Below, in pieces: positions 5,873 through 57,908 of a stretch of 64,000 bases of DNA; within the stretch, counting starts at the first letter, position 1; every line of letters starts with the position of its first letter. Origin of the DNA: Candidatus Hydrogenedentota bacterium. Its GTDB lineage: Bacteria; Hydrogenedentota; Hydrogenedentia; Hydrogenedentales; SLHB01. Location: positions 224,001 through 288,000 of the forward strand of contig CAVUWV010000018.1 in NCBI GenBank assembly GCA_963745075.1, given 5' to 3'. Below the pieces are notes generated by a model. That model was given only the letters and a program-made list of their open reading frames with translations. It ran no database searches and was not told where the DNA came from. The translations under genes and the position numbers were made by a program.

Positions 5873-7891
5873 TTATTTCTTATATTGATAGACATACAGA
5901 GCGGAACTCTTTGGTTCGGCTAGGTTTACCGCGATCCCGTCACTCATCAATTCAGCGCCGGTGGCAGTGCGTGCCTCTCCGGAATCGAGATTGGCGATCG
6001 CATACGACGCATCGGCATCGAGGCCCAAAGGCTTTACCGTCAGGTTCGCGTCCGGGCACTCGGCGCGCCGGAACGCCTGGACCATGCCCCCACCCAGGTC
6101 CGGCCGGTCGTATTGCCACGCCATCCAAGTCTTCTCGCTCGCATCGTAGGGGGTTAAGGGGTAGAAATCGCCGTAGAAATACGGACGGACCCGCTTGTAC
6201 TCGGGAATCCGTTCCGCAAGTCCGGCCCAAAACGGGGCGTCCGGGGAGTAGTAATCGAAAGCGTACGAGGCGCAGGCACCCATGCCGCTCCGAAAATCGT
6301 AGGGGTCGACCGACACCGCGCCGAGCCCATGGTCCGGTAGCCAGAAGGAGAGTCCGTAGCTGATATTTTGCGCCCCCAAGGGGTCCCAGCAATAGTCGGT
6401 ACGCCACAGGGGTACGCAGCGCCGCATCATCTCAAAGTCCAGGCGACGTCCCCCACTCGCGCAATTGTCGATTAGAAGGCCGGGGTGCCGCTGCAACAAG
6501 GTGTCGAGGTAGGTATACAACCCTTCGATGTAGCGGATCTCGCGCATGCCTTGCCGGTCCTCGGGCTCGTCCGTGCGCCAGTAGTACAAGGGGTGCATGT
6601 TAAAATCCTGGCGGTAGATGTCGATGCCCCAGGAATCGATGTATCCGGAGAATGTATCCACCGCCCAGTCGCGTGCGTCCGGATTGCCGAGGTCGAGCAA
6701 ACGCCAATTCTTCTGGTACGCCACGGGATCGGGGAGGTTTGACGGCGTCAACAACCATTCCGGGTGCTGCATGCGTAACCAGGACCCGGGCATGACCCGC
6801 TCCGGCTCGAACCACACGAGGAACCGCAGGCCCGCCGCGTGTGCGGCCTCGGAAACCGGAGCCAAACCGTCGGGGAATCGGGCAGGGTCGGGGTCCCAAG
6901 TCCCCATGCCTTCGGGAAAGCCGCCTACCGACCAGCCGGCGTCTATCCACCAGGTATCGACCGGTAGCCCTTTGGAGTGAATCGTTTCGATGGCTTGGAT
7001 TTGATTGGCCGCGGAAACGTTGTTGAATCCGATAGTCGCGCCGGATGCCGCAACGGGCAGTTCGGCGGGACGGCCGAAGGGCGTCGGCATATAGTGGCGC
7101 AGCATGAGTTGGCGCCACTGATTCTGCCCGTGGAGGCGGTCTCCGGCATAATGCATCATCAGAATCGAGGGAGTCCGGATCTCCTCGCCGGGGTGAAGGC
7201 GTAGATGTGTCCGTTCCATCCCCGCCTGAACGTGCACATTGCCGTTCGCATCGGTCGCAAAGTTGGCGGTCCATTGCCCCGTCCAGCCGATGGCAAGAAC
7301 GACGCCGCTTTCATCTGACTGGGCCAGCGTGAAGTATGGCAAAACGCCGTCGGATGAGCGACCTCCCTGCGGCGTAAATGTGTGGTCCGTGTTCGACGGC
7401 AGTGATGTCTCTCGCGGCTGAAAGTCCGTGGGCTGCGACTGGCTCCCGTCGGCATAGTAGAGAACAGGCGCTGCATCTCCGGCGCGGGGAAGCGCGAAAT
7501 CCGCAGGCCAGATGTCCGAGAGGATGGGACTGTCCCGGTCGCCTTGATTGAAAACATACAGCACCCACTCGACGGCCGGGAAGTCGTTGTACACGGTGGT
7601 CTCGCAGGTGACAACCAATCCTGTCGATGGGTCGTTAAGGCGTATTACCTTTTGGTCGCGCTGCGCGTCGAGTGCATGCCCGGTCCGGGTCACTTCCCAG
7701 GTTCCCACGACCTCCTTCATGGAAACGCCGCCGGCTTTCCACGAGAATGGAAGTACACCGGCGTCCTCTCCAAAAACCGTCGAGCACCACGCGGCGGCGT
7801 CTTGCAGCTCTTGGTCGGACGCCGTCGCCCCGAGAGAAAGGGGCGCGAGAATCAACATGACAACGCAAAGGACAGTGACCTGCCGTTTCAT
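5873..7891 (-). CDS. Secreted alpha-galactosidase-like glycoside hydrolase (GH36)
   Basis: Signal peptide; WWIDAGW, RFPDGL, WFEPE, IYRQDFN, IDNCASGGRRLD, LWRTD. Confidence 0.85.
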   Translation of the reverse strand: MKRQVTVLCVVMLILAPLSLGATASDQELQDAAAWCSTVFGEDAGVLPFSWKAGGVSMKEVVGTWEVTRTGHALDAQRDQKVIRLNDPSTGLVVTCETTVYNDFPAVEWVLYVFNQGDRDSPILSDIWPADFALPRAGDAAPVLYYADGSQSQPTDFQPRETSLPSNTDHTFTPQGGRSSDGVLPYFTLAQSDESGVVLAIGWTGQWTANFATDANGNVHVQAGMERTHLRLHPGEEIRTPSILMMHYAGDRLHGQNQWRQLMLRHYMPTPFGRPAELPVAASGATIGFNNVSAANQIQAIETIHSKGLPVDTWWIDAGWSVGGFPEGMGTWDPDPARFPDGLAPVSEAAHAAGLRFLVWFEPERVMPGSWLRMQHPEWLLTPSNLPDPVAYQKNWRLLDLGNPDARDWAVDTFSGYIDSWGIDIYRQDFNMHPLYYWRTDEPEDRQGMREIRYIEGLYTYLDTLLQRHPGLLIDNCASGGRRLDFEMMRRCVPLWRTDYCWDPLGAQNISYGLSFWLPDHGLGAVSVDPYDFRSGMGACASYAFDYYSPDAPFWAGLAERIPEYKRVRPYFYGDFYPLTPYDASEKTWMAWQYDRPDLGGGMVQAFRRAECPDANLTVKPLGLDADASYAIANLDSGEARTATGAELMSDGIAVNLAEPKSSALYVYQYKK

Positions 7892-7975: not shown

Positions 7976-9094
7976 TCAGAGCTTGATGATATATCCTTGG
8001 TTGTGCAGTTTCTTCGCCGCGGCCCAACAGAACCAGTAGAAGACACAGAATCCCAAAATGGCCCAACCGTAATCCGCGAAAGTGGCGGCATCCGGCTTCG
8101 TCCTCTCGAATTCTCTGCTGAAGAAGTACGACCCGCTCATTGCCAGTAGCGCATATTGCAGGATGTAGATGATCAAAGGGTTTTCCCCGAGAACAGTCAA
8201 CGTCGGAAACTTGAAGTTCCCGAGGTCGCAGCACACGTAGAAAATCAGGAAGGCAAGGAATGCCAGCCCTGTGTGCAGCAATTGAGAGGGCGCCGCGGCC
8301 CAGCGGTGCGCGTAGGACCACCATTTGCCCAGATTCGCGTAGGGCGCGTAGTCGGCGGGAGTCAGCAGGAAGGCGACCCAGCTTGCCGCGCAAAGTCCCA
8401 CCGCACATATGACGGACCACATCAGAATCTTCTTTGTGTCGCGCGTCGCCAGTAGGTCGTAGGCGATGGTCCCGAAGAGCAGGATGAAGGCGTGGCTGAA
8501 CGGCCCAAGGGGACCGCCGTTCATGCTCTTGTGCCGAAGCCAATCGCCGTACCCCGCGTATTCCTGGCCGTCGAAGGTGAAATGGGAACCCGGGCCCGTG
8601 TAGTGCAGGAAAAACGTGAATATCCCGAGATAGACAAAGGCCATGATCGCCCGGGTCGAGACCTTCTTGTCAATGAACGGAAGTGCAAGGATGCCCGCCA
8701 ACGCGATGTCGACGAGCGCGTCCCACCAATCGATTCGCATGTTGGGTCCGTAGACGGCGATACCGACGATGAACAACGTAATGTAACGTTTGAGCGCGTC
8801 CCACCGCGCGGCGCCCAAACCTTTTCGCTCGATTCGCCGTTGAAGCGAAAGACGAAACCCCATACCGACCACAAACATGAAGAGGGGCGCGATGGTATCC
8901 GCATACGACGCCCGGTCGTGGTGGTGATGCAGGATTGCCGGCATGAAATCGAATTCGCCGAGGTAATTCACCAAGATCATGCCGAATATGGCGTATCCTC
9001 GGAGCTGGTCCATGGACGCGATACGTGCCCCGGCGGACAAGATCCCGGTTGTTGGGGCCAGTGGCTCGTTTGCGCTCGCTTGTGATGCAGACAT
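7976..9094 (-). CDS. Heparan-alpha-glucosaminide N-acetyltransferase-like (DUF1624/DUF5009, NagX-like) membrane protein
   Basis: RIASMDQLRGYAIFGMILVN, ADTIAPLFMFVVG, LGENPLIIY; multiple TM helices; RBS GGAGGGA. Confidence 0.75.
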   Translation of the reverse strand: MSASQASANEPLAPTTGILSAGARIASMDQLRGYAIFGMILVNYLGEFDFMPAILHHHHDRASYADTIAPLFMFVVGMGFRLSLQRRIERKGLGAARWDALKRYITLFIVGIAVYGPNMRIDWWDALVDIALAGILALPFIDKKVSTRAIMAFVYLGIFTFFLHYTGPGSHFTFDGQEYAGYGDWLRHKSMNGGPLGPFSHAFILLFGTIAYDLLATRDTKKILMWSVICAVGLCAASWVAFLLTPADYAPYANLGKWWSYAHRWAAAPSQLLHTGLAFLAFLIFYVCCDLGNFKFPTLTVLGENPLIIYILQYALLAMSGSYFFSREFERTKPDAATFADYGWAILGFCVFYWFCWAAAKKLHNQGYIIKL

Positions 9095-9291
9095 ATTCCC
9101 TCCTTCATATGAATCCAGGGGATAGGACGAACGCGTTCCCGTTTGTAGGCACCCCGGCGTCCGTCAGATTCGATAGGCTGATAATGGTCCCACGATCGGG
9201 GGGGAGATTTCCACCAGACCGTTCCCTCTTTCATAGGATTGTGACCATCTATGGATCGGCCGCCGAAATTCGCATCTTCAATCGAGCCAGT

Positions 9292-11642: not shown

Positions 11643-12463
11643 TGCCGGATTATCGCCCTCTGTTCGGCAACGGCATTATCGACTGCAACACGTATCTCGG
11701 CAACTGGGCGTTCCGCCGGTTGCGCCGCAACGACGCGGCAAGCCTTATCGCGATGATGGACACGTTCGGCATCTGGCGCGCCTGCGTAGCCTCGGCTGAC
11801 GCAATTCTCTACCGGGACCCCCAGCCCGGCAACGTGAAACTGCGTGAAGACGCCGACGAATTGCGGGACCGATTGTGGCTGTACGCGACAATCAACCCCA
11901 CGTATGCGGGGTGGGAGCGGGACTTGCGCCAATGTGTGGATTGGGGTTTCAGCGCGGTGCGCCTCTATCCCATCTACCATAACTACGGGCTCGACAGTGC
12001 CGAGTGCGCACGTGCCGTCGATGCGGCGCGCGAAGCAGGGCTTCCCGTCTCTATCCCATGCCGCGTGGAGGACGTGCGGCAACGCCACTGGATGGACCGC
12101 TTTGAGGACGTGGATCCCACGGACGCGCTGCGCCTGGCGGAAGCGAACTCGGAGACGGATTTCATCCTGGCGGAAAGCCTGCTGAGTTGGCCTGCGGACA
12201 GCGACCTGTGGAAGCGCATGCGCGACACACGGATTCATGTCGAACTGAGCCGCATGACCGCCCTCATGGAACGCCCACTTCAGATCGCCGTGAACGCTCT
12301 CGACGCAGATCGTGTGCTGTTCGGCACAGGCTTCCCCTTCAAAACCCCCTCCCCCGCTTTCCTGAAGCTGCAAGTGCTGGAGGCGGACGAAAACGAGAAG
12401 GCGGCTATCGCGGGGGGAAATGCCGTCCGCTTGCTGGAAGCGCGGGAACCGACCGTCGGGTGA
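11642..12463 (+). CDS. Amidohydrolase-family protein with degenerate metal ligands
   Basis: IDCNTYLG in place of DxHxH, AVRLYPIYH, DRVLFGTGFP, IAGGNA; TGATG overlap with the previous gene. Confidence 0.8.
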   Translation: MPDYRPLFGNGIIDCNTYLGNWAFRRLRRNDAASLIAMMDTFGIWRACVASADAILYRDPQPGNVKLREDADELRDRLWLYATINPTYAGWERDLRQCVDWGFSAVRLYPIYHNYGLDSAECARAVDAAREAGLPVSIPCRVEDVRQRHWMDRFEDVDPTDALRLAEANSETDFILAESLLSWPADSDLWKRMRDTRIHVELSRMTALMERPLQIAVNALDADRVLFGTGFPFKTPSPAFLKLQVLEADENEKAAIAGGNAVRLLEAREPTVG

Positions 12464-12485
12464 CCCGAATGGGTGGTCACCTTTT
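12459..12485 (+). terminator. Possible intrinsic terminator
   Basis: GGTGACC...GGTCACC stem followed by TTTT. Confidence 0.4.
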
Positions 12486-12530
12486 GCCCCGTCAATGCCT
12501 CTATCTAACAAAGACGGGGAGGCACAAGCG

Positions 12531-15500
12531 ATGTGGTGGATATCGAAAACCAAGAGCGATAACGAGATTGTCCGGCGCGTGTTGCAGGGACGGCGCGACG
12601 AGTTTGGGTTGCTGGTCGAGCGATACTTGCCTTCGATCCGCGCCGTGGCCTACGCGCGTACCGGCAACTTTGCCGACGCCCAGGACATCGCGCAAGAGAC
12701 CTTTATCAAGGCCTACGAGCGCCTGAACACGCTCCGGGACGTGGCCTGCCTGGGCGCGTGGCTGGCGACCATGGCGCGGAATGAGGCGTCACGGCTCACC
12801 CGGCAGGCCAGCCATCGGGACGATCTCCTTCGGCGCAACGCCGCATCGCAAGAGGCCGTCATTCCCGAAGTCGAGCGCCGGGAACTCCGGGATCTCTTGC
12901 ACAGCCAAATCCAGAGCCTGCCGGAAGATCATCGGGAGGTGCTGCTCCTCCATTACTTCGCCGGGAAACGGGCCCGCGAAATCGCCGCAGTGCAGGGGAT
13001 ATCGACGGACGCCGTCAAGAAGCGGCTCCAACGTGCACGTGAAGCATTGAGCAAATCAATGACGGCACAGTTGCCGGACCTTTTGGAGACGGGGGACGCC
13101 CGAAAGCGGTCGGCGGCGAAGGTCATGGGCCTCATCGCGCTGGCCAGCCCCCCGTGGCAAGCGGCGAGTGCCACGGCCACGGGTGCGGCTGCAACGGCAG
13201 GTGGCACACTGCTAGCCATTAAGGCATCGCTAATTGCCCTGGCGATTGCCGGCATTGCCGGTCCGCTGCTGTGGTACCAGCTTGCGCCGGAATCCCCGGC
13301 ACCGACCGGGAATGCAGTCACGACGGAGGCTCTGCCCGCGACTACCCCCGTCGCGCAAACTGTGCAAGCTTCGGCCACGGAGGCCGGCTCCGATGAGCAA
13401 TCGTCCACAGCGGTGGGCAGCACGAGGACAGCCATCGGGGCGGTCGCGGTGCCCGGGACCTCGGGCGGCAGCATAACCGGTCGCGTATTCGATCGCGACA
13501 CGGACGCGGGCATCGCCGGAGTTCATGTCTGGGCAACACCGGTCGCTGATGACGGTGCCGTGGCTGGCCCGGCGGGTGGTATAAAAGCCTTGACTGGTGC
13601 CGACGGCCGCTACGTGTTGGAGGGCTTCGCGGAAGGCACGTATCGCGTCGCACGTTCGGATCCGGATGGGTACCGTTCCGAGCTGGGACGGGACGAGCAG
13701 GACCTTCTCATGGGTCCCGGAGAGATGAAAGAAGGTATCGACTTTGCCCTTGTTCGGGGCTACTCCGTTTCGGGAACAGTTGTGGACCAACACGGTAAAC
13801 CGGTCTCCAAAGCGGAACTCTACGTACAAGCGGGTGACCGGCCCATATCGATTGGGGCGAAGTCGAACAAGGACGGGAAATTCGTGGTGAAGAATCTGCC
13901 ACCGACCCACACGTTGCGCCTCCAAGCCCACACGGCAAAAGACGCCCCGGACATGCCCTTTCAGAGCGAGGTCATGGGGCCGCTGGAAATCCTAGACGCC
14001 GACTTGGAGGGGCTCGTGGTCGAGCTGAGGCAACCTTGCGACCGGCGCATTACCGGAATCGTCGTCTCTGAGGATGGCGCTCCCCTGGTAAGCATCCGCG
14101 TTTACGCGATGCCCGGGGACTATCGCTCGTTTCCATCCGGCGGTGAATCGGATCAAAACGGGCGTTTCGAAATAGAGGCTCTCGCCGCCGGCCGCTACAA
14201 ACTGGCCTTGCAACGTGCGGGGACCTCCACTTGGTCCGTCTCACCGGACACGCCGTCCTATGAGGTGCATCCCGACGCCGATCTCGAAGACGTGCGCCTC
14301 GTCCTGGATACGCAGGATCGGCTGAGTATATCCGGTCGGGTCGTGGATGCCTCGGGTAATCCGGCAACCGGTGCAGATGTTATGGTGCGGGCGCGACACC
14401 TATCCAAAAGCCAGAGGCTTGAAACCGAAAACGACGGAAGGTATTCCATCGCGGGTCTGGCAGAAGGCACCTACGAAGTCAGCGTAACCCATGAGAAACT
14501 CACTGGTCAGGAACGACAGGGCGTGCCGGCGGGAAGCACTGGCGTGGACTTCATCCTTCAGGAGCGCGGCGCAATCGCGGGCCATGTGGTTGATGCGGAC
14601 ACGGGAAAACCCATCGAGGCCTTCTCCATCAACCCGACGACGGTCATGGAATCGGCGTTTCCGGGTGGCGGTACGTCGAGCCGGTACTCCTCACCCGGGT
14701 TTCTGGAGGTCCGCAGCAAGAACGGCGAGTTCCTGCTGTTCGGCCGCGAGGCGCGCAAGACCATCGTGACCGCGCAGGCGCCGGGCTACTCGCCCGAAAA
14801 GGTCGAGGTCGTGGTTGTTCCGGGGAAAACCACTTCCGGAATATCGATTGCCCTGGAACGGGGTCAACCCTTGTCGGGCCGTGTCGTCAATGAGGCGGGG
14901 ATGCCCGTCCCCGGCGCGCTCCTGTACTGGAATAGCGTCCCCCACGATCCAGAGCGCAATGCCGCCGCTCGGACGGACAGGGATGGCCAATTCATCGTAG
15001 AGGTGCTGGCTCCGGATGTGAGGCGGATCCTGGCGTACCACCCGGACTATGCCATCGCCATAGAGGATTTCCCCGCGCACGAAGTCCGGCCGTTGGAGAT
15101 TGTGCTGCAAAGCGGCGCCACGGTTCAGGGATTCGTGCGCCTCGATGGCGAAGGGGTCGCCAATGCGCGCCTCTCCCTGACCTATTGGAGGATCGGTGGT
15201 TTCCTCAGCGACCTCACGACGCAATCCGGGCCTGATGGAAGCTACGCGTTTACCCACGTCAACGAGACAGACGTTCGCGTCACCGCCAGCATCCCGGTTA
15301 CAGGAGGCCAAGGCGCGCAAAGGTCGTTCTTCCGCGAGGCCGTCGCCAATCCCGAAGCGCCGGTTATCTTGGACTTCGATTTTGGAGCGCTGACCGCGAG
15401 TCTGGAGGGAACGGTCACCTTGCACGGTACGGTGCCGATAAAGACTTGGATATCCCTGGCCATGCATGATGACGGCGCGAAAGAGTATTTTCGAACGAGC

Positions 15501-15956
15501 GCGGATGCCGCAGGGTACTATGTGATTGAGAATATCCCTTCGGGTCCCGGGGAACTAGAAGTGTGGGCCGAAGACGGCGATCTGCGCAGCCGCAAGATCG
15601 TGCCGGTCATCGTCCCGTCCGGCCAATCGTCGCGGTTGGATGTTGATCTGGCCGGAAGCGCATCGCTCCTGATCAACATGTTGAGTGCCAACACGGGAGC
15701 CTCGCCCACGATCTATCTGTTACCTTACGAAACGCAGCTTCCCCCCGATCCCATCTCGCCGAACATCATGCAGAACTGGGATGCCGTAGCCACCAGCGTC
15801 TGGGAAGCGGGCGACGCGCGCACGATTCGCATCGACCGGCTGGAACGCGGCACCTACACAGCGGTGGCCGTCTGGGACCTCAGCGCCGACACCATGCTCG
15901 CAAGCGCCGCGACCGTGACCTTGGAGGACGGCGAGTCCCAAGAGATAGATCTTTAA
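12531..15956 (+). CDS. ECF sigma-70 factor fused to a TM helix and tandem carboxypeptidase-regulatory-like domains
   Basis: Sigma2 (DAQDIAQETFIKAY...AWL) and sigma4 (LPEDHREVLLLHY...AVKKRLQRAR); TM ASLIALAIAGIAGPLLW; repeated ITG/ISG-x-V-x-D...DG-x-F/Y...L-x-x-G-x-Y units; RBS GGGGAGG. Confidence 0.85.
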   Translation: MWWISKTKSDNEIVRRVLQGRRDEFGLLVERYLPSIRAVAYARTGNFADAQDIAQETFIKAYERLNTLRDVACLGAWLATMARNEASRLTRQASHRDDLLRRNAASQEAVIPEVERRELRDLLHSQIQSLPEDHREVLLLHYFAGKRAREIAAVQGISTDAVKKRLQRAREALSKSMTAQLPDLLETGDARKRSAAKVMGLIALASPPWQAASATATGAAATAGGTLLAIKASLIALAIAGIAGPLLWYQLAPESPAPTGNAVTTEALPATTPVAQTVQASATEAGSDEQSSTAVGSTRTAIGAVAVPGTSGGSITGRVFDRDTDAGIAGVHVWATPVADDGAVAGPAGGIKALTGADGRYVLEGFAEGTYRVARSDPDGYRSELGRDEQDLLMGPGEMKEGIDFALVRGYSVSGTVVDQHGKPVSKAELYVQAGDRPISIGAKSNKDGKFVVKNLPPTHTLRLQAHTAKDAPDMPFQSEVMGPLEILDADLEGLVVELRQPCDRRITGIVVSEDGAPLVSIRVYAMPGDYRSFPSGGESDQNGRFEIEALAAGRYKLALQRAGTSTWSVSPDTPSYEVHPDADLEDVRLVLDTQDRLSISGRVVDASGNPATGADVMVRARHLSKSQRLETENDGRYSIAGLAEGTYEVSVTHEKLTGQERQGVPAGSTGVDFILQERGAIAGHVVDADTGKPIEAFSINPTTVMESAFPGGGTSSRYSSPGFLEVRSKNGEFLLFGREARKTIVTAQAPGYSPEKVEVVVVPGKTTSGISIALERGQPLSGRVVNEAGMPVPGALLYWNSVPHDPERNAAARTDRDGQFIVEVLAPDVRRILAYHPDYAIAIEDFPAHEVRPLEIVLQSGATVQGFVRLDGEGVANARLSLTYWRIGGFLSDLTTQSGPDGSYAFTHVNETDVRVTASIPVTGGQGAQRSFFREAVANPEAPVILDFDFGALTASLEGTVTLHGTVPIKTWISLAMHDDGAKEYFRTSADAAGYYVIENIPSGPGELEVWAEDGDLRSRKIVPVIVPSGQSSRLDVDLAGSASLLINMLSANTGASPTIYLLPYETQLPPDPISPNIMQNWDAVATSVWEAGDARTIRIDRLERGTYTAVAVWDLSADTMLASAATVTLEDGESQEIDL

Positions 15957-37354: not shown

Positions 37355-38707
37355 CTACTCGTGCCGCAGGGCTTCCACGGGATCCATATTGGCGGCGCGC
37401 ATGGCGGGATAGATGCCGAAAACGATCCCCACGATGGCCGATATACTGAAGGCAATCATGGGCGACCACGGGGTTACGATCGTTTTGAGGTCCGCGAAGT
37501 ACTGGATGAAATAGGGTATCGCCAGTCCCAGCGCGACCCCGATAATCCCGCCCGTGGCGGAGAGCAGTACGGTCTCGATCAGAAATTGAAGCACGATGTC
37601 CTTTTTCTTGGCGCCGAGCGCGCGCCGGATACCGATTTCGCGGGTTCGTTCCGTGACGGTCGCCAACATAATATTCATGATTCCGATACCGCCAACGAGG
37701 AGGGAAATCGCGGCGATCGCACCCAACACAATGTTGAAGATGCGCTTGGTCCGTTCCGCTTGGCGTAGCAGATCGAGGGGAACGATGATCTCGTAGTCTA
37801 TCTTCTTATGGGTAGAGGCCAGAAGGTCGGCGATGATGTGCCACGTCTCGACGACGTCATCGATATTGTCTACCTTTACCGTCGCTTCGTGCAGTTGCAC
37901 GCGTTCGGCATTAAAGCTGCCGCTGCTCCGCTGGACGATCAGCTCGCCGAATCGGTTTTTCGATGCCGTCAGCGGAATGTACATTTCAAACGGAGCGCCG
38001 GTCGAGTGGCCGCCGTTTCCCAGGCCGCCGTTGGTGGGCGAAGCCATGGTGTTCCGCTCCGACTCCGGTTCCATCATTCCGATAACCTGATAGTAGTCGC
38101 CGTCCACCCGCACCATCTTGCCGATGGGATCGTCGATGGGAAACAACCGCGGGGCCATGCCATCGCCGAGCACACAAACGTTCACATTGTTTTCCAGTTC
38201 CTCTTCCGTGAAAAAGCGGCCGCTCGACACGTAGTGGTTGCGCATTGCAGGGTATTCGGGAACGGTGCCGATGATGTCGCAATCGATCCGGTTCGGCCCG
38301 TTCCACACGTCCTTCCGAACGATTCGGGAAGGGATGATGGTATCCACGGTAGGGATGGTGGCTTCCATGCGGTCAACGTCGTCGTAGGTGACACCGTACT
38401 CGACGACAAAGTTCCGTTCCGCAGTGCTGCTCCGATCTTCGGGAGGTTTGACGCTGCGGATGATTATGTTGTTGCTGCCAAGGCGGCGAATCTGTTGCTG
38501 GGCTTCAAAGCTCAACCCTTCGCCGATGGCGAGCATGGCGATCACGGAACATACGCCGAAGACGATACCGAGACCGGTCAGCAACGAGCGCAGACGATGC
38601 AGCCACAGACTTTTCAGACCCAGGCGTATGGAACGCCGGATACGCTCGGCGTCGCCCGCCCAGCGGGACCAGGAGAATCCGGATGCCTGGCTAGTTGCGG
38701 CGGTCAT
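37355..38707 (-). CDS. ABC transporter permease (MacB/FtsX type)
   Basis: LRSLLTGLGIVFGV, ISLLVGGIGIMNIMLATVTERTREIGIRRALGA, YPAMRAANMDPVEALRHE. Confidence 0.93.
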   Translation of the reverse strand: MTAATSQASGFSWSRWAGDAERIRRSIRLGLKSLWLHRLRSLLTGLGIVFGVCSVIAMLAIGEGLSFEAQQQIRRLGSNNIIIRSVKPPEDRSSTAERNFVVEYGVTYDDVDRMEATIPTVDTIIPSRIVRKDVWNGPNRIDCDIIGTVPEYPAMRNHYVSSGRFFTEEELENNVNVCVLGDGMAPRLFPIDDPIGKMVRVDGDYYQVIGMMEPESERNTMASPTNGGLGNGGHSTGAPFEMYIPLTASKNRFGELIVQRSSGSFNAERVQLHEATVKVDNIDDVVETWHIIADLLASTHKKIDYEIIVPLDLLRQAERTKRIFNIVLGAIAAISLLVGGIGIMNIMLATVTERTREIGIRRALGAKKKDIVLQFLIETVLLSATGGIIGVALGLAIPYFIQYFADLKTIVTPWSPMIAFSISAIVGIVFGIYPAMRAANMDPVEALRHE

Positions 38708-39380
38708 CGCTCTCCACCTGTCCATCGCGCAGACGAATGACACGGCCAGCACGCTCGGAGATCTCGTCGGAGTGGGTCACCATGATGATGGTCTTGCCCT
38801 GATTGTGCAAGTCGTCAAACACGCCGAGTATGTCCGAGCCGGACGATGAATCGAGGTTACCGGTGGGTTCGTCGGCCAGGATGATCAGCGGATCGTTGGC
38901 CAGGGCCCGCGCCACGGCAACACGTTGCTGCTGTCCGCCGGACAACTCGAACGGTTTGTGATCCATGCGGTCACCCAGCCCCACGCGTTCCGCCAATTGC
39001 ATCGAGACGATATGACTTTCGTGCTGGGGGCGACCCTGGTAATACAACGGAACCTCGATGTTTTCGAGCACGTTCAGTTGCTGGATGAGATTGTAGGACT
39101 GAAAGACGAAACCAATCCGGGTACCCCGAATGGTCGACAGTTCGTCATCGTCAAGTGTCGAGACATCATCGGTGCCGAGGATGTAGGTGCCTTTGCTCGG
39201 ACGATCGAGGCACCCCAGGATATTCAACAAGGTCGACTTGCCGCACCCGGAGGGGCCCATGATCGTAATGTATTCACCGGGGAAGAAGTCCAGCGATACG
39301 CCGCGCAGGGCTTCCACCATGATCGAACCCATCAGATATTGCTTGCGAACCTCATCTATTTTTGCGATGGCGTCTTGCAC
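38691..39380 (-). CDS. ABC transporter ATP-binding protein (LolD/MacB type)
   Basis: [34 protein letters not shown]. Confidence 0.94.
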
Positions 39381-39389
39381 TGTTCCATG

Positions 39390-41411
39390 TCAACCTTGCT
39401 GCGGACCGCGTCCTGCGCCGGAATCATCACCGCCTCGTTGTCCGCCACCTTGGTCGTCGCCTCCGTCCGGTTGCTGCTTCTTCTCTTCACCGCCGGGTCC
39501 GGACTTCTCCGTGGTTGAGTGTCCCTGGGGGGCGCGCAACAACACGCGCTCACCCTCTTTCAAGCCATTGTTGATGGCGATGAACTCCCTGTTGAAGTCT
39601 CCAGTTTCGACGATCCGCCGTTCCGTGCGCCCACTCGACGTTTCTACGTAGCAAACGCGCTGGTCTTTTTCCGCCTGCACGGCCTGAATCGGCACGTATA
39701 CCACATCGGCAAGCTGCGCGACTTCGATTTCTACCTGGGCGCTCATTCCCGGCTTCAACCAATCGTAGGTGCCACCGATGCTCACCATCGTGGGGTAGAG
39801 TTTCAAGTCCGGATTCATCCATCGCGACGTGGAGTCCGGAATCACGCTCACCTTGATGACCTCTCCCGTCAATTCCTCATCTTTGTACGTATCCAAATGG
39901 ATGCGCGCCCTTTGCCCCTTCTTGATCTTCTTGATCGACGATTCGTGAATCTTGACCTTCACGGCCATCTGGGTCATATCGGGAATGGTAATGATCTCTT
40001 GCCGTTCGTAGACCGCCGCGCCTTCTTCGATCTGATCGCGGTTTCGCCAAGGCTCGTCGCTACCCGCGTAAACTACGAGTCCGGGTCGTTCCGCACGGAT
40101 GGTGCACGCGTCCAACTGGTCCTGCAACTCTTTCATGCGGGCTTCGCGCAGCTTGAAATTGGCTTCGCTCGATTTCCATTTGGCTTCCGCTTGCGCTTCG
40201 GTGGCGACGCCCTTCTTGATGGTCCGTTCGAGTTTGCGAATCGCCTCCTCGTAATCGGAGAGGAGCTTTTCCGCCTGCTTGGGAAATTCGTACTTGATGA
40301 AAAGTTCTTCGGCCGTCTCGGCCGATTCAAGGCTGATCGTGTTCTTTTTGACACTCATTTCGTCGCCGTCCAATTCCTGCTTGGTGACGAAATTCTTCTC
40401 GGCCAGCCGGCGCGTCCCTTCCAGTTTCACTTTGGCGAGGGCGAGTTCCTCTTCCGAGATCAACCGATCGCTCTGCAACGTGCGCAAGGTTTGCTCGGCT
40501 TCGCCATCACCCAGCTTTTCGGGCGACGCATATTGGGAGAAATCCACATCGGGCCGGTTCAAGTCCGTCACCGATGAGCTGGCCATTTGTACCGCTTCGT
40601 CTGAACCCGGCTCGACGACGGTCGCCGGATCGACTTCGGGCGGATCGCTGGAGGTGCCGGTCGTTGCGACGGGTACCTTGTCGCCAGCCATTTCGGCGGG
40701 AAGGTCGCCACCCTCCAAGTCCGATTCGGCTTTCGACCCATCGAGTTCGATCGAGGCGGCATCAGGGTTCTCCTCGACCGTGACGGTGGCATCCGCGGCA
40801 ATGCTTTCTTCCGATGCCTCGCGCGTCTCCTCGACCATGGCATCGATGTCGACCGCAAGATCGAGATTGTCCACGATGTCGTCAGCCAACTGGTCGCCCA
40901 TATACTTCTTGAAATCCATCAACGCGAATTTCACTTCGAGTTCCGACGCCTTGATATCGCTTTCATTCTGCTTGACCTGGATCTCGTACTGTTCGCGGGC
41001 GTCCGTAAAGTTGGCGTATGCGCTCTGAAACTCGATGGTCTGCTGGGTGATCTTCTCGAGCAGTTCGGAGTCGTCCAAGGTGACGAGGATTTTGCCTTCG
41101 TCCACGTCCTGCTGGGTCACGAGGTACCCTTCTTCCACGATGGAGAGGATTTTGGTCTCGCCCTTAATCTCCGACTTAATCGTCTGCGATTCCCGGGCTT
41201 CTACATTGCCTCCCTCCACCACGGAGATGGTAAGGGGTCCCCGCCGCGCGGCAAAGGTGGTGCGCAGTCCGCTCTCCTCTCCCCCTCCTCGGAAGTACAG
41301 AACAATCGCCGCCAATATGACCACCGCAGCGGCAATTCGCACGTAGCGATTGCGCAGGAGCGCACGGAACTTACTTTTCCGCGGTTTGGTCTGAGGTCTC
41401 TGTTGGGACAT
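39390..41411 (-). CDS. Periplasmic adaptor subunit (MacA/HlyD type) with a long acidic insertion
   Basis: N-terminal TM, coiled coil, IRAERPGLVVY, LKPGMSAQVEI, VPIQAV, GLKEGE. Confidence 0.88.
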   Translation of the reverse strand: MSQQRPQTKPRKSKFRALLRNRYVRIAAAVVILAAIVLYFRGGGEESGLRTTFAARRGPLTISVVEGGNVEARESQTIKSEIKGETKILSIVEEGYLVTQQDVDEGKILVTLDDSELLEKITQQTIEFQSAYANFTDAREQYEIQVKQNESDIKASELEVKFALMDFKKYMGDQLADDIVDNLDLAVDIDAMVEETREASEESIAADATVTVEENPDAASIELDGSKAESDLEGGDLPAEMAGDKVPVATTGTSSDPPEVDPATVVEPGSDEAVQMASSSVTDLNRPDVDFSQYASPEKLGDGEAEQTLRTLQSDRLISEEELALAKVKLEGTRRLAEKNFVTKQELDGDEMSVKKNTISLESAETAEELFIKYEFPKQAEKLLSDYEEAIRKLERTIKKGVATEAQAEAKWKSSEANFKLREARMKELQDQLDACTIRAERPGLVVYAGSDEPWRNRDQIEEGAAVYERQEIITIPDMTQMAVKVKIHESSIKKIKKGQRARIHLDTYKDEELTGEVIKVSVIPDSTSRWMNPDLKLYPTMVSIGGTYDWLKPGMSAQVEIEVAQLADVVYVPIQAVQAEKDQRVCYVETSSGRTERRIVETGDFNREFIAINNGLKEGERVLLRAPQGHSTTEKSGPGGEEKKQQPDGGDDQGGGQRGGDDSGAGRGPQQG

Positions 41412-43320
41412 CAGAAATGTCCTCCCACTGTCCGTTCTCCTTAATAAATAGGATCCCCATATCGCGCCAGAATTGAAGGCGTGAGATCGTGTGTCGAATC
41501 AATGCGTCCGTCAACTCGTTCTGGGCATCCGTATAGGCGTTTTGCGCGTCGATCTGGTCGAGCGGAATCGCGATGCCGAGTTCGGAACGAAGGTCTTGCT
41601 CCTCGACGCGCCGTTTCGCGAGATCCAGGGCCAGTTTGCGGTTTTCGTAGTCCCAGCGCGCCTGATCCAAATCGCGCCACGCATTGCGCACGTCCAGTGT
41701 AACATTATCCTCTGCAAGCGACAATTCCCGGAACGCCCGCTCGTAGGAAATCAGACTGGTCCGGTAGGTATTCCGTTCGGACTTGCGATCCAGGGGCAAA
41801 TCCACGTCAAACCCCGCGCTCCACCGGGCGCGCTGAAAGTCCAACGTATTGAACGTGTCCTGACCGGGATCGCTGTCCACATTGCCGGAAACGACCAGAT
41901 CGAGGTCCGGTTTCAGGTTGTTCGCGGCGACCTTGATCTTGCGTTCGGCGTCATCAACTTCGTCTCGTACGTTGTACAAATCCAACCGCGCGACGCGGGC
42001 CACGGCGACGGCGTCTTCACTGGCGATATCGGGGTGGATGATCCCCCGAGCCATCAGCCGGGTAAGTTCCTCGTCATCCAACACGATCGGCGTTTCGGTG
42101 GAGAGACCGAGCAGAATCTTGAATTGGTCGAGACTTTGCTTGTAGGCACGTACCGAATTCACCCAGGTGTTCTCAGCGTTCAATTCCGATTGCTCGATTC
42201 GTCCGAGACCGGCCTGGGTCGTGCGCCCCTCGTCTGCAAGGGCCCGCGTCAATTCGGCTTGGCGGCGAAACGCCTGATAGCCTTGCCAGTTGTTGCGCAC
42301 GGCGTCCCGCCGTTGCAGGACTTCGTAGTAGTTAGAAGCCACCTGCACGGCGAATTCCTTGCGGTACCGTGTGAAGGACCGCAATTGGTACAGCACGTCC
42401 CGCTCGGACTGGGTCAACACTTCCGCCGCCACGTCACTTCCACGTCCCCGGAGAAGCGGCTGCGTAATGCTGCCGACAAGTGCTGACGACGTGGAAACGT
42501 CGGGATTCCCGGTCAAGAAACGAAGGAAGTTCGAGGTCAGGCCGATGGCAATCTGGCCGCCCCCCTTGAGCAACATCCCCACGCCGATTCTGGATTGACC
42601 GGATACGCTGCGTTCGTTGCGGATTTCGTTGTCCGGCTGATTGGCCCCGGAAACGGTGAAAGCCTCATCGACGACGTTCGCATAGGAGTTGAGCAACTGA
42701 GCGGGCGTGCCGGAGAGGGCCGCGATGCCTTCCAGCGTCGCGATGGAGACGTTATTCGGCGCCACGCCGAACAACTCCAGATACCCGGCCGCCGTCGAGG
42801 CGTTGCCCAAGCTGGTGGACGCATTGTTTCCGGCCTGGCTCAGCCACCCCGGAATCGCCTGCGCGAGTTCTGCCGAGCCGGAGAGCTTGGAGACATCCGT
42901 CGTGGAACGATTGTACTCCGATGATCCTTGCGCGGAGAAGATGGGTGCATATCGATGACGGTCGAGTGTCAACGAAAGAGCCTGAAGGTACAGTAATTCC
43001 TTCTGATTCTGGTAGGTGCGGTTGTGATTCACAGCGATCCGAAGTGCATCTTCGAGTGAAATAATGTGGGCGCCGATTTCAAACGATCCCGCGTCGCCCA
43101 AATAATCGTCGGTTTCGCTGGATACGGGCAAGCTTTCCAGGGGGTCCGTCTTTACTTCGTCAATGGTGAAGTCCAACGTCATGCCCGGAACGGCGGGACT
43201 CTTCTGGTCGATGATCTTGTACGCCTCGCGGTCCGCGCTTTCGCGATAGTGGGTGGTCGTACAGCCCACGGCAAAGATTAATCCCAGCGAGAGAATCAGT
43301 GTGATACGAGAAGCATTCAT
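41371..43320 (-). CDS. TolC-family outer-membrane lipoprotein
   Basis: Lipobox AVGC; SLEDALRIAV, ITQPLLRG, helical repeats; first gene of the exporter operon. Confidence 0.85.
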   Translation of the reverse strand: MNASRITLILSLGLIFAVGCTTTHYRESADREAYKIIDQKSPAVPGMTLDFTIDEVKTDPLESLPVSSETDDYLGDAGSFEIGAHIISLEDALRIAVNHNRTYQNQKELLYLQALSLTLDRHRYAPIFSAQGSSEYNRSTTDVSKLSGSAELAQAIPGWLSQAGNNASTSLGNASTAAGYLELFGVAPNNVSIATLEGIAALSGTPAQLLNSYANVVDEAFTVSGANQPDNEIRNERSVSGQSRIGVGMLLKGGGQIAIGLTSNFLRFLTGNPDVSTSSALVGSITQPLLRGRGSDVAAEVLTQSERDVLYQLRSFTRYRKEFAVQVASNYYEVLQRRDAVRNNWQGYQAFRRQAELTRALADEGRTTQAGLGRIEQSELNAENTWVNSVRAYKQSLDQFKILLGLSTETPIVLDDEELTRLMARGIIHPDIASEDAVAVARVARLDLYNVRDEVDDAERKIKVAANNLKPDLDLVVSGNVDSDPGQDTFNTLDFQRARWSAGFDVDLPLDRKSERNTYRTSLISYERAFRELSLAEDNVTLDVRNAWRDLDQARWDYENRKLALDLAKRRVEEQDLRSELGIAIPLDQIDAQNAYTDAQNELTDALIRHTISRLQFWRDMGILFIKENGQWEDISDVPTETSDQTAEK

Positions 43321-43636
43321 GGAGTAACTGCGTGGCCCCGGCCCAACGAACCCGTTCGGCTTTAACAACTTACCAACAATTCGAACATTAACAATTGACA
43401 TCAAAAGACATACTCTATCACAAGATGGAACCCGAAAGGACGCAAAAAGTTCCACGAGCCGGATTCGCGCCGCGACTGCCCACCCCACCCATCGCCGGGA
43501 GAACGCAGTAGTAATAACCCACCGAGTCTATTTCGTGTCTTCAGTTCTATGCACCCGATCGCCGGTATCGATCACGAGGACGGCTCGATCAAGGCCAGAA
43601 ATGGGAAGAGGACTCGGTGGCAGAGCAAGGCCGAAT

Positions 43637-54599: not shown

Positions 54600-56114
54600 T
54601 TATCGGGTCCGATCGGCCGGAGCCGCCAAATCCCAAATATAAACGTCCCATCGTCCGGGATAATGATAGCGCTTTGCCGGCAGACCATTTTCCTTCAGCG
54701 CCGCGTCGACCTGGCGGGCCTCGTAGAGGTCAGGTACTTCGAAGAATGCGATTGCCGTTGGCTGGCCCGAACGGGCATTTTCCACAGCCTCTTCAATGAA
54801 TTGCTCGGAATGTTCGAGCCGGGATTGGTCCACCCCGCCATAGAATACGAGAGTCGGCTCGAAATTGTTCGGGGGAGAATAAACGGTAGCGTCCTTGTCA
54901 GCCAGTTCCGCGAGTACGGGCCGTGCCGACTTCCAGTCCGGCCGCATGGGTCGCCACAAATCCACCAGGTTTCCCGCCATGAGTAATAGTAGGAGCGCCA
55001 GAGCACTGTTGCGCCACGCCGCACTCGGGAGCTTGGCCACGCCCGCCCCCACCAACAGGTAAAGCGCGAAACACGAATAGAGTGTGTACCGTTCCACGAA
55101 GCACGGTTTGACGGTGTACGTGAGAAAGAACAACGTGAACGGTGGAAGAATCAGCCAAAACAGGACAAACAAGGTGCGATCGTCGACCATCGGAATCACG
55201 TGGCTTCCGACCTTCCAGCGGTTCGAGATAACGTTCCGGAGGACAAAAAACGCGGCAACCGCGAGCAGAAACCCACCGAGCAGATAATGAACCGGAATTC
55301 CCAAGGGCAAGTGGCGAACTAGGTCCAACGCATCCAGTTTGCTTCCGGCATAGACGAAATAATAGGCATCAAACAGACGCTTCAAGCCGGGTTTGTAGAT
55401 CCATGCCACGTGATCTTCGAGGGTTTTGAAGTCCGTGGTTAAGAACCAGGCCATCGCAAACCCGCCGACAATCGCATGGGCCAGAGCCCAAGAGCCGAGA
55501 AGACGGAACTTTCGCGGCCGGGTCACGAGAAGAAAGACGAATTGCATGCCAATGAAGAGAACGGCAAACAGATGCGTCGACATCGCAAGGGCGTTGGCGA
55601 TGAAATTGCAGATCCACCACCGCTTCTTGTTGGTGTCAAGGGCATTGACGAACCCATACGCGGACACGACGGCAAACAAGAGCACGAAGGCATACATCCG
55701 AATCTCTTGCGATTGGTAAATCAGGAGTTTAGAGAACGCAACACAGAGCGCCGCCGTGCAGCCGGCCCAGTGCCCGTACAAGCGGCGTCCGAGAAGGTAC
55801 ATGACGAGGATCGTGGCCATCCCGGACAATAAGGACAGCAACCGGACGGCAAGAACGGAATCGCCGACCAATCGAGCCCAGTAGTATTCGGTGGTGAAGT
55901 AGACGGGCAGCATGGCCGAATCGAGTTGCCGTTCAAGTTGGAAAAACTGTTGAATCGTAGGCGAATCCAGGAACTCGAAGCTCGAAATCTCGTCGTACCA
56001 GACCGGCTCATAGTCTATTCGATAAATCCGCAGCGCAAATCCGACAAGCAGAATGGCGCAAATGGCGGCGACCTGTCGATAGGTCCATTCCTGTTTGACG
56101 TCATCCAGATTCAT
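54600..56114 (-). CDS. GT-C membrane glycosyltransferase (GT39/ArnT-PMT-like)
   Basis: WYDE, PVYF, VRLLS, SQEIRMY; multiple TM helices. Confidence 0.82.
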   Translation of the reverse strand: MNLDDVKQEWTYRQVAAICAILLVGFALRIYRIDYEPVWYDEISSFEFLDSPTIQQFFQLERQLDSAMLPVYFTTEYYWARLVGDSVLAVRLLSLLSGMATILVMYLLGRRLYGHWAGCTAALCVAFSKLLIYQSQEIRMYAFVLLFAVVSAYGFVNALDTNKKRWWICNFIANALAMSTHLFAVLFIGMQFVFLLVTRPRKFRLLGSWALAHAIVGGFAMAWFLTTDFKTLEDHVAWIYKPGLKRLFDAYYFVYAGSKLDALDLVRHLPLGIPVHYLLGGFLLAVAAFFVLRNVISNRWKVGSHVIPMVDDRTLFVLFWLILPPFTLFFLTYTVKPCFVERYTLYSCFALYLLVGAGVAKLPSAAWRNSALALLLLLMAGNLVDLWRPMRPDWKSARPVLAELADKDATVYSPPNNFEPTLVFYGGVDQSRLEHSEQFIEEAVENARSGQPTAIAFFEVPDLYEARQVDAALKENGLPAKRYHYPGRWDVYIWDLAAPADRTR

Positions 56115-56438
56115 CGTATACTCCGAGTCTTGAATGCGCTCCCCATGAGGACGAACGTCACAGCAATTCTCGCCATGCAAAAGCGCGCTAGTCCGCGTTT
56201 CTACCCGCCCCGGAAGTCGTCGTTTTGCCGACCGGTACCTTGGGCGCGGGGAGAAATGCTTTCGAGAAAAACCGAAGGCTTACAGTCGAGAAGTTCTCGC
56301 ACACACTCTATGAACCCAATAAGCTCGGACAGACACGCGAAGCTCCGGAAGCTTCGAGTTACAAATTCGACGTTTGGTGCGTGTGAGAATTCCCGGCTAG
56401 TGTAGCGGATCGCACGCAGCATTTAACAGAAAAATCCG

Positions 56439-56467
56439 TTGACAAACCCACGTCCCGAAGGTAGGTT
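56439..56467 (+). promoter_or_regulatory. Sigma70-type promoter
   Basis: TTGACA-N17-TAGGTT about 100 nt upstream of the leader ORF. Confidence 0.6.
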
Positions 56468-56564
56468 AAATGTATGGCGTTCGGTGATGGTTTTGTTCCA
56501 GGCGGAAAACATTTACCTACGCCAATACCGTGAGACCAAGGCGTTCTTGGGGAACCTCGATTTC

Positions 56565-56903
56565 ATGAATCGAAAATGGTTAAGACTCGGCGCGTGCGCC
56601 GCGCTGGTGCTTTTCGCGTGTGCGGAATTGCACACGGTGGTGCCGTTTGTCTTTTCCGAATTCCATCACGATAGCCCCGAAAACGCGCCATTCGACGGAT
56701 CGACCGGCAATGACTCCCGTCAGCCCTGTGCGCTGTGCCTGCTAATCCACTCGGCAACACTCGTCCCTTCTGCGGATGCTGTTCAAGGTCCGCCTGATGT
56801 CACCCCGGAACAACCCGTTCCAGAAGACAACGCCATCGTCTGGTGCGATACCTCCTGGAGACCCGAGTCCCGCCGGGGTCCTCCCTCCTTACACACTTCC
56901 TAA
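56565..56903 (+). CDS. DUF2946/CruR/CutF-like leader peptide (signal-like N-terminus, HH, CxxC, C-terminal RGPP)
   Basis: 112 aa: MNRKWLRLGACAALVLFAC...EFHHD...PCALC...RRGPPSLHTS. Confidence 0.75.
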   Translation: MNRKWLRLGACAALVLFACAELHTVVPFVFSEFHHDSPENAPFDGSTGNDSRQPCALCLLIHSATLVPSADAVQGPPDVTPEQPVPEDNAIVWCDTSWRPESRRGPPSLHTS

Positions 56904-57002
56904 TCGCAGAACTCCCCGTGTGAATCGTCGAGCGTAAAGACGTTTATCGCTTACGCACGACGCCGTGTTGTGACGTGTGTAAACCAATAAGGAGTTATCC
57001 CT

Positions 57003-57908
57003 ATGCGTACCAAGGGTTTTACATTGATCGAACTGTTGGTGGTCATCGCCATCATTGGCATTCTCGCGGCAATCCTGCTCCCGGCGCTCGCACGGGCAAG
57101 GGAAGCAGCCCGTCGCGCGAGCTGCCAGAACAATCTGAAGCAAATGGGTCTCGTGTTGAAGATGTACAGCAACGAGAGCGCGGGGGAGAAATACCCTCCG
57201 ATGAAGTCCGTCGATTGCAACGGAAATCCGGCGCCGGGCGCCACGATATTCCGCGTGGAGTCCATGGATCCCGAGTATCTGACGGACCTGAATGTGCTGG
57301 TGTGCCCGAGTGCGTCTTCGGGCTCGACCGCCCTGGAACTTTGGGACCAAGGCGAAACAACGTCGACCCTGTGGGGCGGGAATGGCGCCATCGTTCAGCC
57401 CTTTGCGAACAACGGAATCGTTGAGCCGTGTGAAGTCTACGAACACCCTTATATCTACCTGGGCTGGGTGATTGAGAAACGGTTGTCCGCCGACCAGACC
57501 GCGCTGGACGCGTTGGCGGTCAACGTGGACGATCTGTTCGCCGCATTGAACACCACGGCCGCGGATGCGGAACAGGTCGCCGACAGCGACTGGGACGTCG
57601 TGGACGGAACCGGAAACGGCGGCGGCGACAAGATCAATCGGATGCGCGAGGGTATCGAGCGTTTCCTGATCACGGATATCAACAATCCGGCGGGAAGCGC
57701 GATGAGCCAAACCGAACTTCCGGTCATGTGGGACGAGATTTCCGGTGACAACGCAACACACTTCAACCACGTTCCCGGCGGCTGCAATGTGTTGTACATG
57801 GACGGCCACGTCAAGTTCTTGAAGTACGACGGCCCTTTCGGTTCGGACTTTCCGGTTAACGGCGGCGGCCTCGTGTTCCACGAGATGAGTCACCTCCTGT
57901 ACCCGTAA
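57003..57908 (+). CDS. DUF1559 prepilin-type protein with H-X9-DG C-terminal motif
   Basis: [59 protein letters not shown]. Confidence 0.93.

Follow-up and report, generated by a model that had tools for sequence, protein, structure and literature searches.

Proteins of the DUF2946 family are defined by the combination of a CXXC and an RAPP motif (Roy et al. 2022, PMC9426467). In CruR (Bp2923) of Bordetella pertussis these motifs occupy residues 90 to 93 and 139 to 142, 45 residues apart, and the spacing between them is reported to be conserved, give or take one or two residues, among family members and to be needed for function (PMC9426467). According to the same study, more than 95% of the family carry a signal peptide or an N-in/C-out transmembrane segment, and the members are found mostly in Proteobacteria, with "a few" in Planctomycetes. 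In Rhodobacter capsulatus, the exported DUF2946-like leader CutF (of cutFOG) is accompanied by a stem-loop that lies between it and its target gene and shields that gene's Shine-Dalgarno (SD) sequence, and stalling at the C-terminal Pro motif of CutF is proposed to melt this stem-loop (PMC9973294; bioRxiv 10.1101/2025.02.05.636593). RGPP has been described as the most robust arrest motif and as refractory to elongation factor P (EF-P), with RAPP also robust and RDPP and RSPP partly permissive (EMBO J 2025, PMC12992588); the RAPP/RGPP arrest peptides covered there include ApdA, ApdP and SecM, and CruR is shown to arrest in vitro, with a toeprint in which its two Pro codons occupy the P and A sites. 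Here we analyze a leader of this kind in a 64,000-nt stretch of DNA (hereafter the window; contig CAVUWV010000018.1, positions 224,001 to 288,000) from a Candidatus Hydrogenedentota bacterium, where a 112-codon open reading frame (ORF) with a CxxC and an RGPP motif precedes a gene for a prepilin-type DUF1559 protein with a His-containing C terminus. The gene pair is conserved across the phylum, and the last codons of the leader are complementary to the ribosome-binding site (RBS) of the target gene in a manner that co-varies across genera.

The leader ORF, a candidate for a DUF2946-like exported arrest peptide on the basis of its sequence, Pfam comparison and orthologues, spans positions 56565 to 56903 of the plus strand and encodes 112 amino acids followed by a stop codon. 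The protein starts with MNRKWLRLGACAALVLFACAELH (MNRKW...), rich in Lys and Arg, and continues into LGACAALVLFACA, its best 12-residue segment having a mean Kyte-Doolittle value of 2.52. This hydrophobic, export-signal-like segment (residues 8 to 20, ending ...ALVLFACA) is followed by E-L-H23, the whole lying at 56586 to 56633. Two adjacent His residues (34 and 35), the CxxC motif CALC (residues 55 to 58, positions 56727 to 56738) and the presumed arrest site RGPP (residues 104 to 107, codons CGG GGT CCT CCC, positions 56874 to 56885) come next, with exactly 45 residues between CALC and RGPP. A preliminary description of the locus had placed RGPP at the very end of the protein; the ORF, its signal-like N terminus and all three motifs are where it located them, but the protein ends RGPPSLHTS, with five residues between the motif and the stop. 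The leader is the first gene of its unit, since the gene upstream (54600 to 56180, minus strand) is divergent, and the target lies downstream on the same strand. As the leader stop codon ends at 56903 and the DUF1559 start codon ATG is at 57003, the spacer is 99 nt, the distance given previously.

Comparison of the window leader with the Pfam DUF2946 profile (PF11162) gave a match of 16.2 bits (E = 0.018) over profile positions 40 to 117 of 117, the gathering cut-off of this profile being 23.7 bits. A search of 1.84 billion representative proteins returned nine relatives at E <= 0.001, eight of which are small (112 to 132 aa), and these eight were combined with the window leader in an alignment of nine sequences (A1), in which leader identity is 28 to 40% and A20, H23, C55, C58, L60, S102, R104, P106 and P107 are invariant. 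Eight of the nine aligned proteins match PF11162 at E <= 1. The two that exceed the cut-off are P0001, an orthologue from the same genus (24.3 bits), and P0008 (27.7 bits), which bears a precomputed PF11162 label; the remaining relatives score 12.3 to 21.3 bits, apart from one with no match. A word-indexed protein search with the leader alone found no relatives, and with the A1 profile it found only four proteins, all of them already in A1. At the genome level, orthologues with 37 to 44% identity are present in all five other genomes of the genus, and orthologues at E <= 1e-3 in 40 of the 133 genomes of the order, representing 24 of 64 genera.

To this we added a motif survey of all fetched loci, with a pattern consisting of a hydrophobic N terminus, CxxC, 38 to 50 residues, R-x-P-P and 0 to 9 residues before the stop, any residue being allowed at x. 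The survey collected 51 distinct leaders across the phylum. The position left free in the pattern is occupied by only four residues (RGPP in 31 leaders, RAPP in 11, RDPP in 6 and RSPP in 3), a set that agrees with the arrest motifs described in PMC12992588. The spacing between CxxC and RxPP is similarly narrow, at 43 residues in 14 leaders, 44 in 21, 45 in 12 and 47 in 4, and between one and eight residues follow RxPP, with two to five in 46 of the 51. All but one of the leaders have a strongly hydrophobic N-terminal 12-mer (mean Kyte-Doolittle of at least 1.8). In 39 of the 51, the first His past the hydrophobic segment is preceded by small residues at a distance of five and of three positions (A-C-A|E-L-H in the window leader); signal-peptidase cleavage at this point, a site placed from the residue pattern and not by a signal-peptide predictor, would yield a mature protein that starts X-X-His. 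Such an N terminus is what we take to be an amino-terminal Cu(II)- and Ni(II)-binding (ATCUN) motif. The DUF2946 likeness that had been suggested for the leader is supported both by the profile match (E = 0.018, with matches for eight of the nine aligned proteins) and by the 45-residue CxxC-to-RxPP spacing of the family. Judged by these profile and motif data, the 112-aa ORF is a peripheral or distant DUF2946 relative, of the family that includes CruR and CutF.

The association of the leader with a DUF1559 gene was evident from both directions. In the main set, comprising 30 loci with 32 leader ORFs, a prepilin-type gene is the next gene after 31 of the 32 leaders, 41 to 230 nt downstream. Since 131 of 135 genomes contain a homologue of the target at E <= 1e-60, 20 further loci chosen by target similarity were inspected directly. 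One of these was not parsed and another has only 153 nt of upstream sequence; in 16 of the 18 that could be evaluated, an upstream ORF (uORF) of the form CxxC...R(G/A/D/S)PP ends 87 to 256 nt before the target start, and many of these leaders had escaped the leader profile. Hence the survey of upstream regions proposed in the preliminary description finds the leader conserved in front of DUF1559 orthologues. Spacers across the relatives measure 41 to 256 nt, with one additional case of tandem leaders. Apart from the leader and its target, no gene of the neighborhood is shared across genera, and therefore the unit consists of two genes.

Several loci depart from the simple pair. The sole main-set leader with no prepilin-type gene next to it (L057, G020:C16; leader at 6353 to 6988, minus strand) has two unannotated ORFs after it on the same strand, one of 220 and the other of 424 aa. 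The tandem case (L051, G072:C153) has leaders at 5710 to 6234 and 6343 to 6795 before a single DUF1559 gene at 6837 to 7811; the second leader is 41 nt from the DUF1559 start codon, and the encoded target has no HExxH motif. Another locus (L056, G015:C2) contains two full leader/DUF1559 modules within 3.6 kb, with leaders at 6540 to 7001 and 8735 to 9118, both on the minus strand. The genome of the window itself holds a second pair (L070, G000:C8:69300-71250), in which 256 nt separate the end of an RDPP leader from the pilin start (about L070:1016). That leader matches PF11162 with 20.4 bits (E = 0.0009), and its target is the closest paralogue of the window protein, with 306 aa and 55% identity, ending in FPLNQAGLQFHRSNH (FHRSNH).

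The target gene of the window (57003 to 57908, plus strand) encodes a 301-aa prepilin-type N-methyl/DUF1559 protein, as identified by Pfam matches, orthologues and an AlphaFold2 (AF2) model. It scores 57.2 bits against DUF1559/SBP_bac_10 (PF07596, cut-off 23.3) and 33.7 bits against N_methyl (PF07963, cut-off 21.2). Its orthologues are 51 to 75% identical (alignment A3), far above the 28 to 40% found for the leaders. The most distinctive part of the protein is at its C terminus, where the targets share the motif FP(V/M)NxGGxxxHExxH; in the window protein the last part of this motif reads HEMSH (residues 293 to 297, positions 57879 to 57893), with H293 and E294 conserved in at least 90% of A3. 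We count HExxH in 19 of the 23 aligned leader-linked targets of A3 and in 15 of 19 further ones, and in many targets the sequence runs on into a His-rich tail, for example HGHGHGHGHD or HHHHHH. The genome contains 29 PF07596 matches and, by pattern search, 25 prepilin-type genes, and among these only the gene in the window encodes HExxH. Both of the evaluable target-selected loci that had no uORF end in HAxSH instead of HExxH. They encode DUF1559 homologues (L065, G041:C198; L072, G042:C67) that are 62 to 67% identical to the window protein and terminate in HA(L/M)SHKKY, and no PP-tailed uORF occurs within 400 nt upstream of either, which is consistent with the leader and HExxH travelling together. 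The link to metals that had been proposed for the target gains support from the conserved C-terminal HExxH and the His-rich tails.

In the AF2 model of the target (mean predicted local distance difference test score, 76.6), residues 8 to 58 form a long N-terminal helix and HEMSH is located on a C-terminal helix, residues 287 to 299. A Foldseek search with the model gave no match at E <= 0.001. VIA-align returned weak pilin-like matches, to 6xxd_A (Z 4.3, root-mean-square deviation 3.5, 122 residues aligned) and to EpsG (4lw9_A, Z 3.9); these Z scores are too low to support more than a predicted pilin-like core, and neither fold search pointed to a known metal-binding fold. The genome also holds a prepilin peptidase gene, two TonB-dependent receptor matches and a Rho gene.

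Inspection of the mRNA between the two genes in the window showed that the end of the leader ORF can base pair with the RBS of the target. The 5′ arm (56885 to 56899, plus strand) lies in the last leader codons and comprises the anti-SD CTCCTTA (56885 to 56891) together with TTACACACTTC (56889 to 56899), while the 3′ arm (56972 to 56994) comprises GACGTGTGTAA (56972 to 56982) and the SD sequence TAAGGAG (56988 to 56994), 8 nt before the ATG; both arms emerge from the sequence, the repeat search and folding. CTCCTTA is the exact complement of TAAGGAG, as had been noted, and the previously described pairing of TTACACAC (56889 to 56896) with GTGTGTAA (56975 to 56982) is likewise present and is extended by the inverted-repeat search to 11 nt at 91%. 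Between the arms, the inner hairpin (56926 to 56937 with 56951 to 56962) is recovered as a 12-nt inverted repeat at 92%, in agreement with the earlier account, and occurs in the minimum free energy (MFE) structures. In the MFE structure of the window, GGAG of the SD (56991 to 56994) pairs with CUCC at 56881 to 56884, inside the RGPP codons and hence in the Pro-Pro codons themselves; across the ensemble, pairing with CUCC at 56885 to 56888 is about as frequent (p of about 0.47). The same fold joins GGGGU, from the Arg-Gly codons, to AUCCC directly upstream of the AUG, and UUACACAC to GUGUGUAA. The probability that the SD is paired with the ORF tail is 0.66 in the window. A third CUCC (56912 to 56915, plus strand) is located 9 nt past the leader stop and is the predicted partner of the SD under a stalled ribosome footprint (p = 0.94-0.95).

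The complementarity was then compared across the relatives. When leader tails (from the Arg codon to the stop) were paired with the RBS-proximal 30 nt of cognate and non-cognate targets, 13 of 14 genera showed the stronger duplex for the cognate pair (Wilcoxon p = 0.0012); in one cognate pair, for example, a tail ending in CCTGTCCCTCGTTCTGA faces TCAGAACGATAAGGACAGG. In a permutation test on one locus per genus, with row and column effects removed by double centering, 21 of 20,000 permutations reached the observed value and 11 of the 14 diagonal terms were negative. The result was replicated on 14 other loci gathered afterwards, for which three of 20,000 permutations reached the observed value, again with 11 of 14 negative terms. 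In addition, 18 of 32 leaders use CCT as the first Pro codon of the motif and so contain CCUCC at this place, whereas CCT makes up 65 of the 292 remaining Pro codons in these ORFs and 70 of the 496 Pro codons in the targets, a contrast that is inflated by relatedness. We take the pairing of the last leader codons with the target RBS to be under selection, because of the cognate excess, both permutation tests and the CCT enrichment. The complementarity of the leader 3′ end to the downstream SD, which the preliminary description had proposed from the window, is thus not only present there but co-varies across genera.

With a CxxC and RGPP leader in front of a His-tailed pilin-like gene, and last codons that pair with its RBS, the module is therefore most likely a metal-responsive switch, known in type but wired to an unstudied kind of target. 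The reading we favor, as the probable one, is that the leader is an exported metal-sensing arrest leader of the CruR/CutF type that controls the His-tailed DUF1559 gene in cis, chiefly through the helix between the leader tail and the SD. In such a switch the exported nascent chain would carry a metal site formed by CxxC and His, fixed 45 residues ahead of the RGPP arrest motif, and binding of metal to the emerging chain would set the dwell time of the ribosome on RGPP. The dwell time would in turn decide whether the leader-tail/SD helix stands, and the state of that helix would set the output of pilin-like protein, as in the CutF/SecM principle. The parts of this scheme do not have equal standing. 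The conserved ORF with its motifs and spacing, the conserved gene pair and the co-varying tail/RBS complementarity can be read directly in the aligned loci. Arrest at RGPP is suggested by the published work on RGPP and RAPP, and metal sensing by the family likeness and the His-rich target.

A number of observations weigh against this reading. To begin with, the 16.2 bits of the window leader are below the PF11162 cut-off, and no metal-homeostasis gene or recognizable operator adjoins the module. The folding of the window is also unexceptional. Positions 56860 to 57010 have an MFE of -41.2 kcal/mol (z = -1.79), which 9 of 200 shuffled sequences match or better; a tail/RBS duplex at least as stable as that of the window (-20.2 kcal/mol) is found at equal distance upstream of 8.4% of 490 generic genes of the genome, and a probability of an unpaired SD of 0.24 or less in 28% of 250 generic genes. 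Taken alone, the window hairpin is not beyond chance, so that of the long SD-sequestering hairpin described at first, all pairings stand at their positions whereas the structure as a whole lies within the range of chance. In the relatives, native tails exceed dinucleotide-shuffled tails in SD pairing only modestly, by 0.61 to 0.45, in 9 of 13 genera (p = 0.047; 2 of 29 loci, with no SD-like word, were dropped). The predicted effect of stalling on the window, in equilibrium folding, is small as well. When the footprint of the stalled ribosome is held unpaired, the probability of a free SD rises only from 0.24 to 0.34, because GGAG pairs anew with the third CUCC at 56912 to 56915 (p = 0.95). The idea that a ribosome stalled at RGPP would free the SD is accordingly not borne out by the footprint-constrained fold of the window, and across the window's genus the mean probability of a free SD even falls, from 0.36 to 0.21. 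In favor of the reading, the mean over 13 genera goes from 0.14 to 0.35 and rises in 12, again by equilibrium folding, which suggests that modelled stalling frees the SD only partly. Finally, the first 30 nt past the leader stop have mean C and G contents of 0.35 and 0.15 over 29 loci, versus 0.27 and 0.29 in the rest of the spacer, and a tract so rich in C and poor in G would fit either a Rho loading site or spare anti-SD copies.

This last point bears on a first alternative, which we regard as unlikely, namely that the same arrest leader acts mainly on transcription. A ribosome held on RGPP would keep Rho off a C-rich site past the stop, release of the ribosome would let Rho terminate before the DUF1559 gene, and the tail/SD pairing would be secondary. 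Besides the composition of the tract and the Rho gene in the genome, this alternative is favored by the spacers of about 100 nt, which are long, as Roy et al. remark for the cruR homologues, and by CruR, which is reported to act by the Rho route (PMC9426467). However, the tract is weak in the window, where positions 56904 to 56933 have a C content of 0.33 and a G content of 0.27, and it is readable as extra copies of the anti-SD. Moreover, Rho-dependent control has no need of a tail/RBS complementarity that co-varies.

Improbable too, in our estimate, is a second alternative, in which the leader functions as an exported protein that binds metal and serves the pilin-like protein as a chaperone or partner, and the hairpin does no more than couple translation of the two genes, with no ligand-controlled arrest; any ribosome completing the leader would then open the SD. 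The export signal, the conserved Cys and His residues and the constant co-location with the gene for the partner all fit such a role, and so does the folding of the window with a ribosome at the stop codon. In that state the SD is least strongly held, with a mean free probability of 0.39 for its AAGGAG core, compared with 0.24 in the free mRNA and 0.34 under the stalled ribosome, and GGAG pairs only with the neighboring CCU (p 0.86-0.89). A working protein is harder to reconcile with the pattern of conservation, as the leaders are poorly conserved outside their motifs (28 to 40% in A1, against 51 to 75% for the targets), and the residues that are conserved are the hallmarks of arrest leaders, an R-x-P-P with x only G, A, D or S at a fixed spacing. 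RGPP is furthermore described as the most avoided tetrapeptide in 10 of 17 major bacterial groups unless used for arrest (PMC12992588), and neither CruR (PMC9426467) nor CutF (PMC9973294) is reported as detected as a stable protein. A third alternative, chance origin of the ORF and hairpin before an ordinary DUF1559 gene, would accommodate the unremarkable window-only statistics but is refuted for practical purposes, and we give it almost no credence, given that orthologues occur in all five other genomes of the genus and in many further genera and share invariant C, C, S, R, P and P residues, that 51 distinct leaders were collected and that the covariation was replicated on independent loci.

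Upstream of the leader, the putative promoter of the unit consists of TTGACA (56439 to 56444) and TAGGTT (56462 to 56467) on the plus strand, separated by 17 nt. It lies where the preliminary description had put it, and its hexamers are kept in all six loci of the genus in the form TTGACA-N17/18-TAG(G/A)nT. A consensus promoter scan did not list the site, because the -10 hexamer agrees with TATAAT at only three of six positions. Two inverted repeats, 56420 to 56427 with 56465 to 56472 (8 nt, 100%) and 56461 to 56469 with 56512 to 56520 (9 nt, 89%), overlap the putative -10 element and the 5′ untranslated region of the leader; by eye, neither was seen in the other loci of the genus. Rfam gave no match at E <= 1 over 56150 to 57100. 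The genome has one gene each for a Fur-family, a CobW-type and a ZnuA protein, and a comparison of their upstream regions by eye, with no motif search run, showed no motif in common with the leader promoter.

Elsewhere in the window, 13 kb from the module and with nusA-infB-truB in between, positions 37358 to 43488 of the minus strand encode a MacB-type ABC efflux set that consists of an FtsX/MacB_PCD permease, an ABC ATPase, an HlyD adaptor and an outer-membrane factor. A 1178-aa frame on the plus strand (12420 to 15953) combines N-terminal sigma-70 regions 2 and 4 of the extracytoplasmic function type with several CarboxypepD_reg repeats, and may be either a fusion or two genes merged by crude ORF picking.

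The kind of leader described here is known already, from CruR (2022), CutF (2021-2025) and the RAPP/RGPP arrest peptides. The pairing of such leaders with DUF1559 genes, which the preliminary description had thought undescribed, is in fact in print, in a source-table row that the accessible parts of the paper do not discuss: in the source table for Fig. 4B of PMC12992588, 112 RAPP versus 68 AAPP uORFs have a "DUF1559 domain-containing protein" downstream (6.46-fold, adjusted p 1.05E-31). The term DUF1559 has zero occurrences in the main text of that paper; its accessible portions contain no analysis of the leader family, the RNA pairing or the His-tailed target, and "Hydrogenedent" is absent from those of its supplement files that were searched. 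In a full-text literature search, the four papers with "DUF1559" did not overlap those with DUF2946 or RGPP. The accessible text supplements of PMC9426467 and PMC9973294, which perhaps do not include the neighbor tables, contain no mention of DUF1559, SBP_bac_10 or N_methyl. New here are the extension of putative arrest leaders of the metal-sensing type to the uncultured phylum Hydrogenedentota, a replicated covariation test for an anti-SD located in the codons of the arrest site and tail, an HExxH/His-tail signature by which the regulated DUF1559 paralogue is recognized, and the caveat that equilibrium folding of the window does not predict a simple unmasking by stalling.

Few protein families that lack an assigned function are as large as DUF1559, which has 29 matches in this genome, and a leader in front of one His-tailed paralogue offers a testable handle, in that one can ask which metal shifts the expression of this paralogue and whether that metal is bound by the tail. 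As a speculative and rather doubtful proposal, Hydrogenedentota, and going by the published catalogue planctomycetes also, may build a metal-regulated, His-tailed pseudopilin whose HExxH/His-rich C terminus captures Cu, Ni or Zn outside the cytoplasm, and whose synthesis is gated co-translationally by a nascent exported sensor with an X-X-His start, once its signal peptide is removed, and a CxxC motif 45 residues before RGPP. If true, this would be the first function for a DUF1559 member and a pilus-based route of metal handling in place of a TonB-dependent receptor.

Comparison with described systems places the module as follows. The target resembles type IV pilins and pseudopilins of type II secretion in its prepilin methylation motif, its long N-terminal helix and its weak fold matches; it differs from them in its length of 301 aa, its large insertions and its DUF1559 signature, and its C-terminal HExxH/His-rich tail is not seen in the pilin matches. 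The leader and CruR are alike in that each is encoded by a small first gene of an operon, bears an export signal, has CXXC 45 residues before R-x-P-P with few residues between the latter and the stop, and is followed by a long intergenic region. However, CruR contains RAPP and the window leader RGPP, the CruR target is a TonB-dependent transporter and the window target a prepilin-type DUF1559 protein, and the leader is found in Hydrogenedentota as opposed to the Proteobacteria and few Planctomycetes of DUF2946. The pairing of the leader tail with the SD of the next gene, present in the window, is no part of the model described for CruR, which invokes Rho-dependent termination. In contrast to the window leader, with its CxxC and RGPP, CutF is described as having CxxxC and an EF-P-dependent PPP motif (PEPEGPPPRL), and its target is a multicopper oxidase in place of a DUF1559 protein. 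Unlike in CutF, the anti-SD in the window is located inside the last codons of the leader itself, and a further CUCC follows past the stop.

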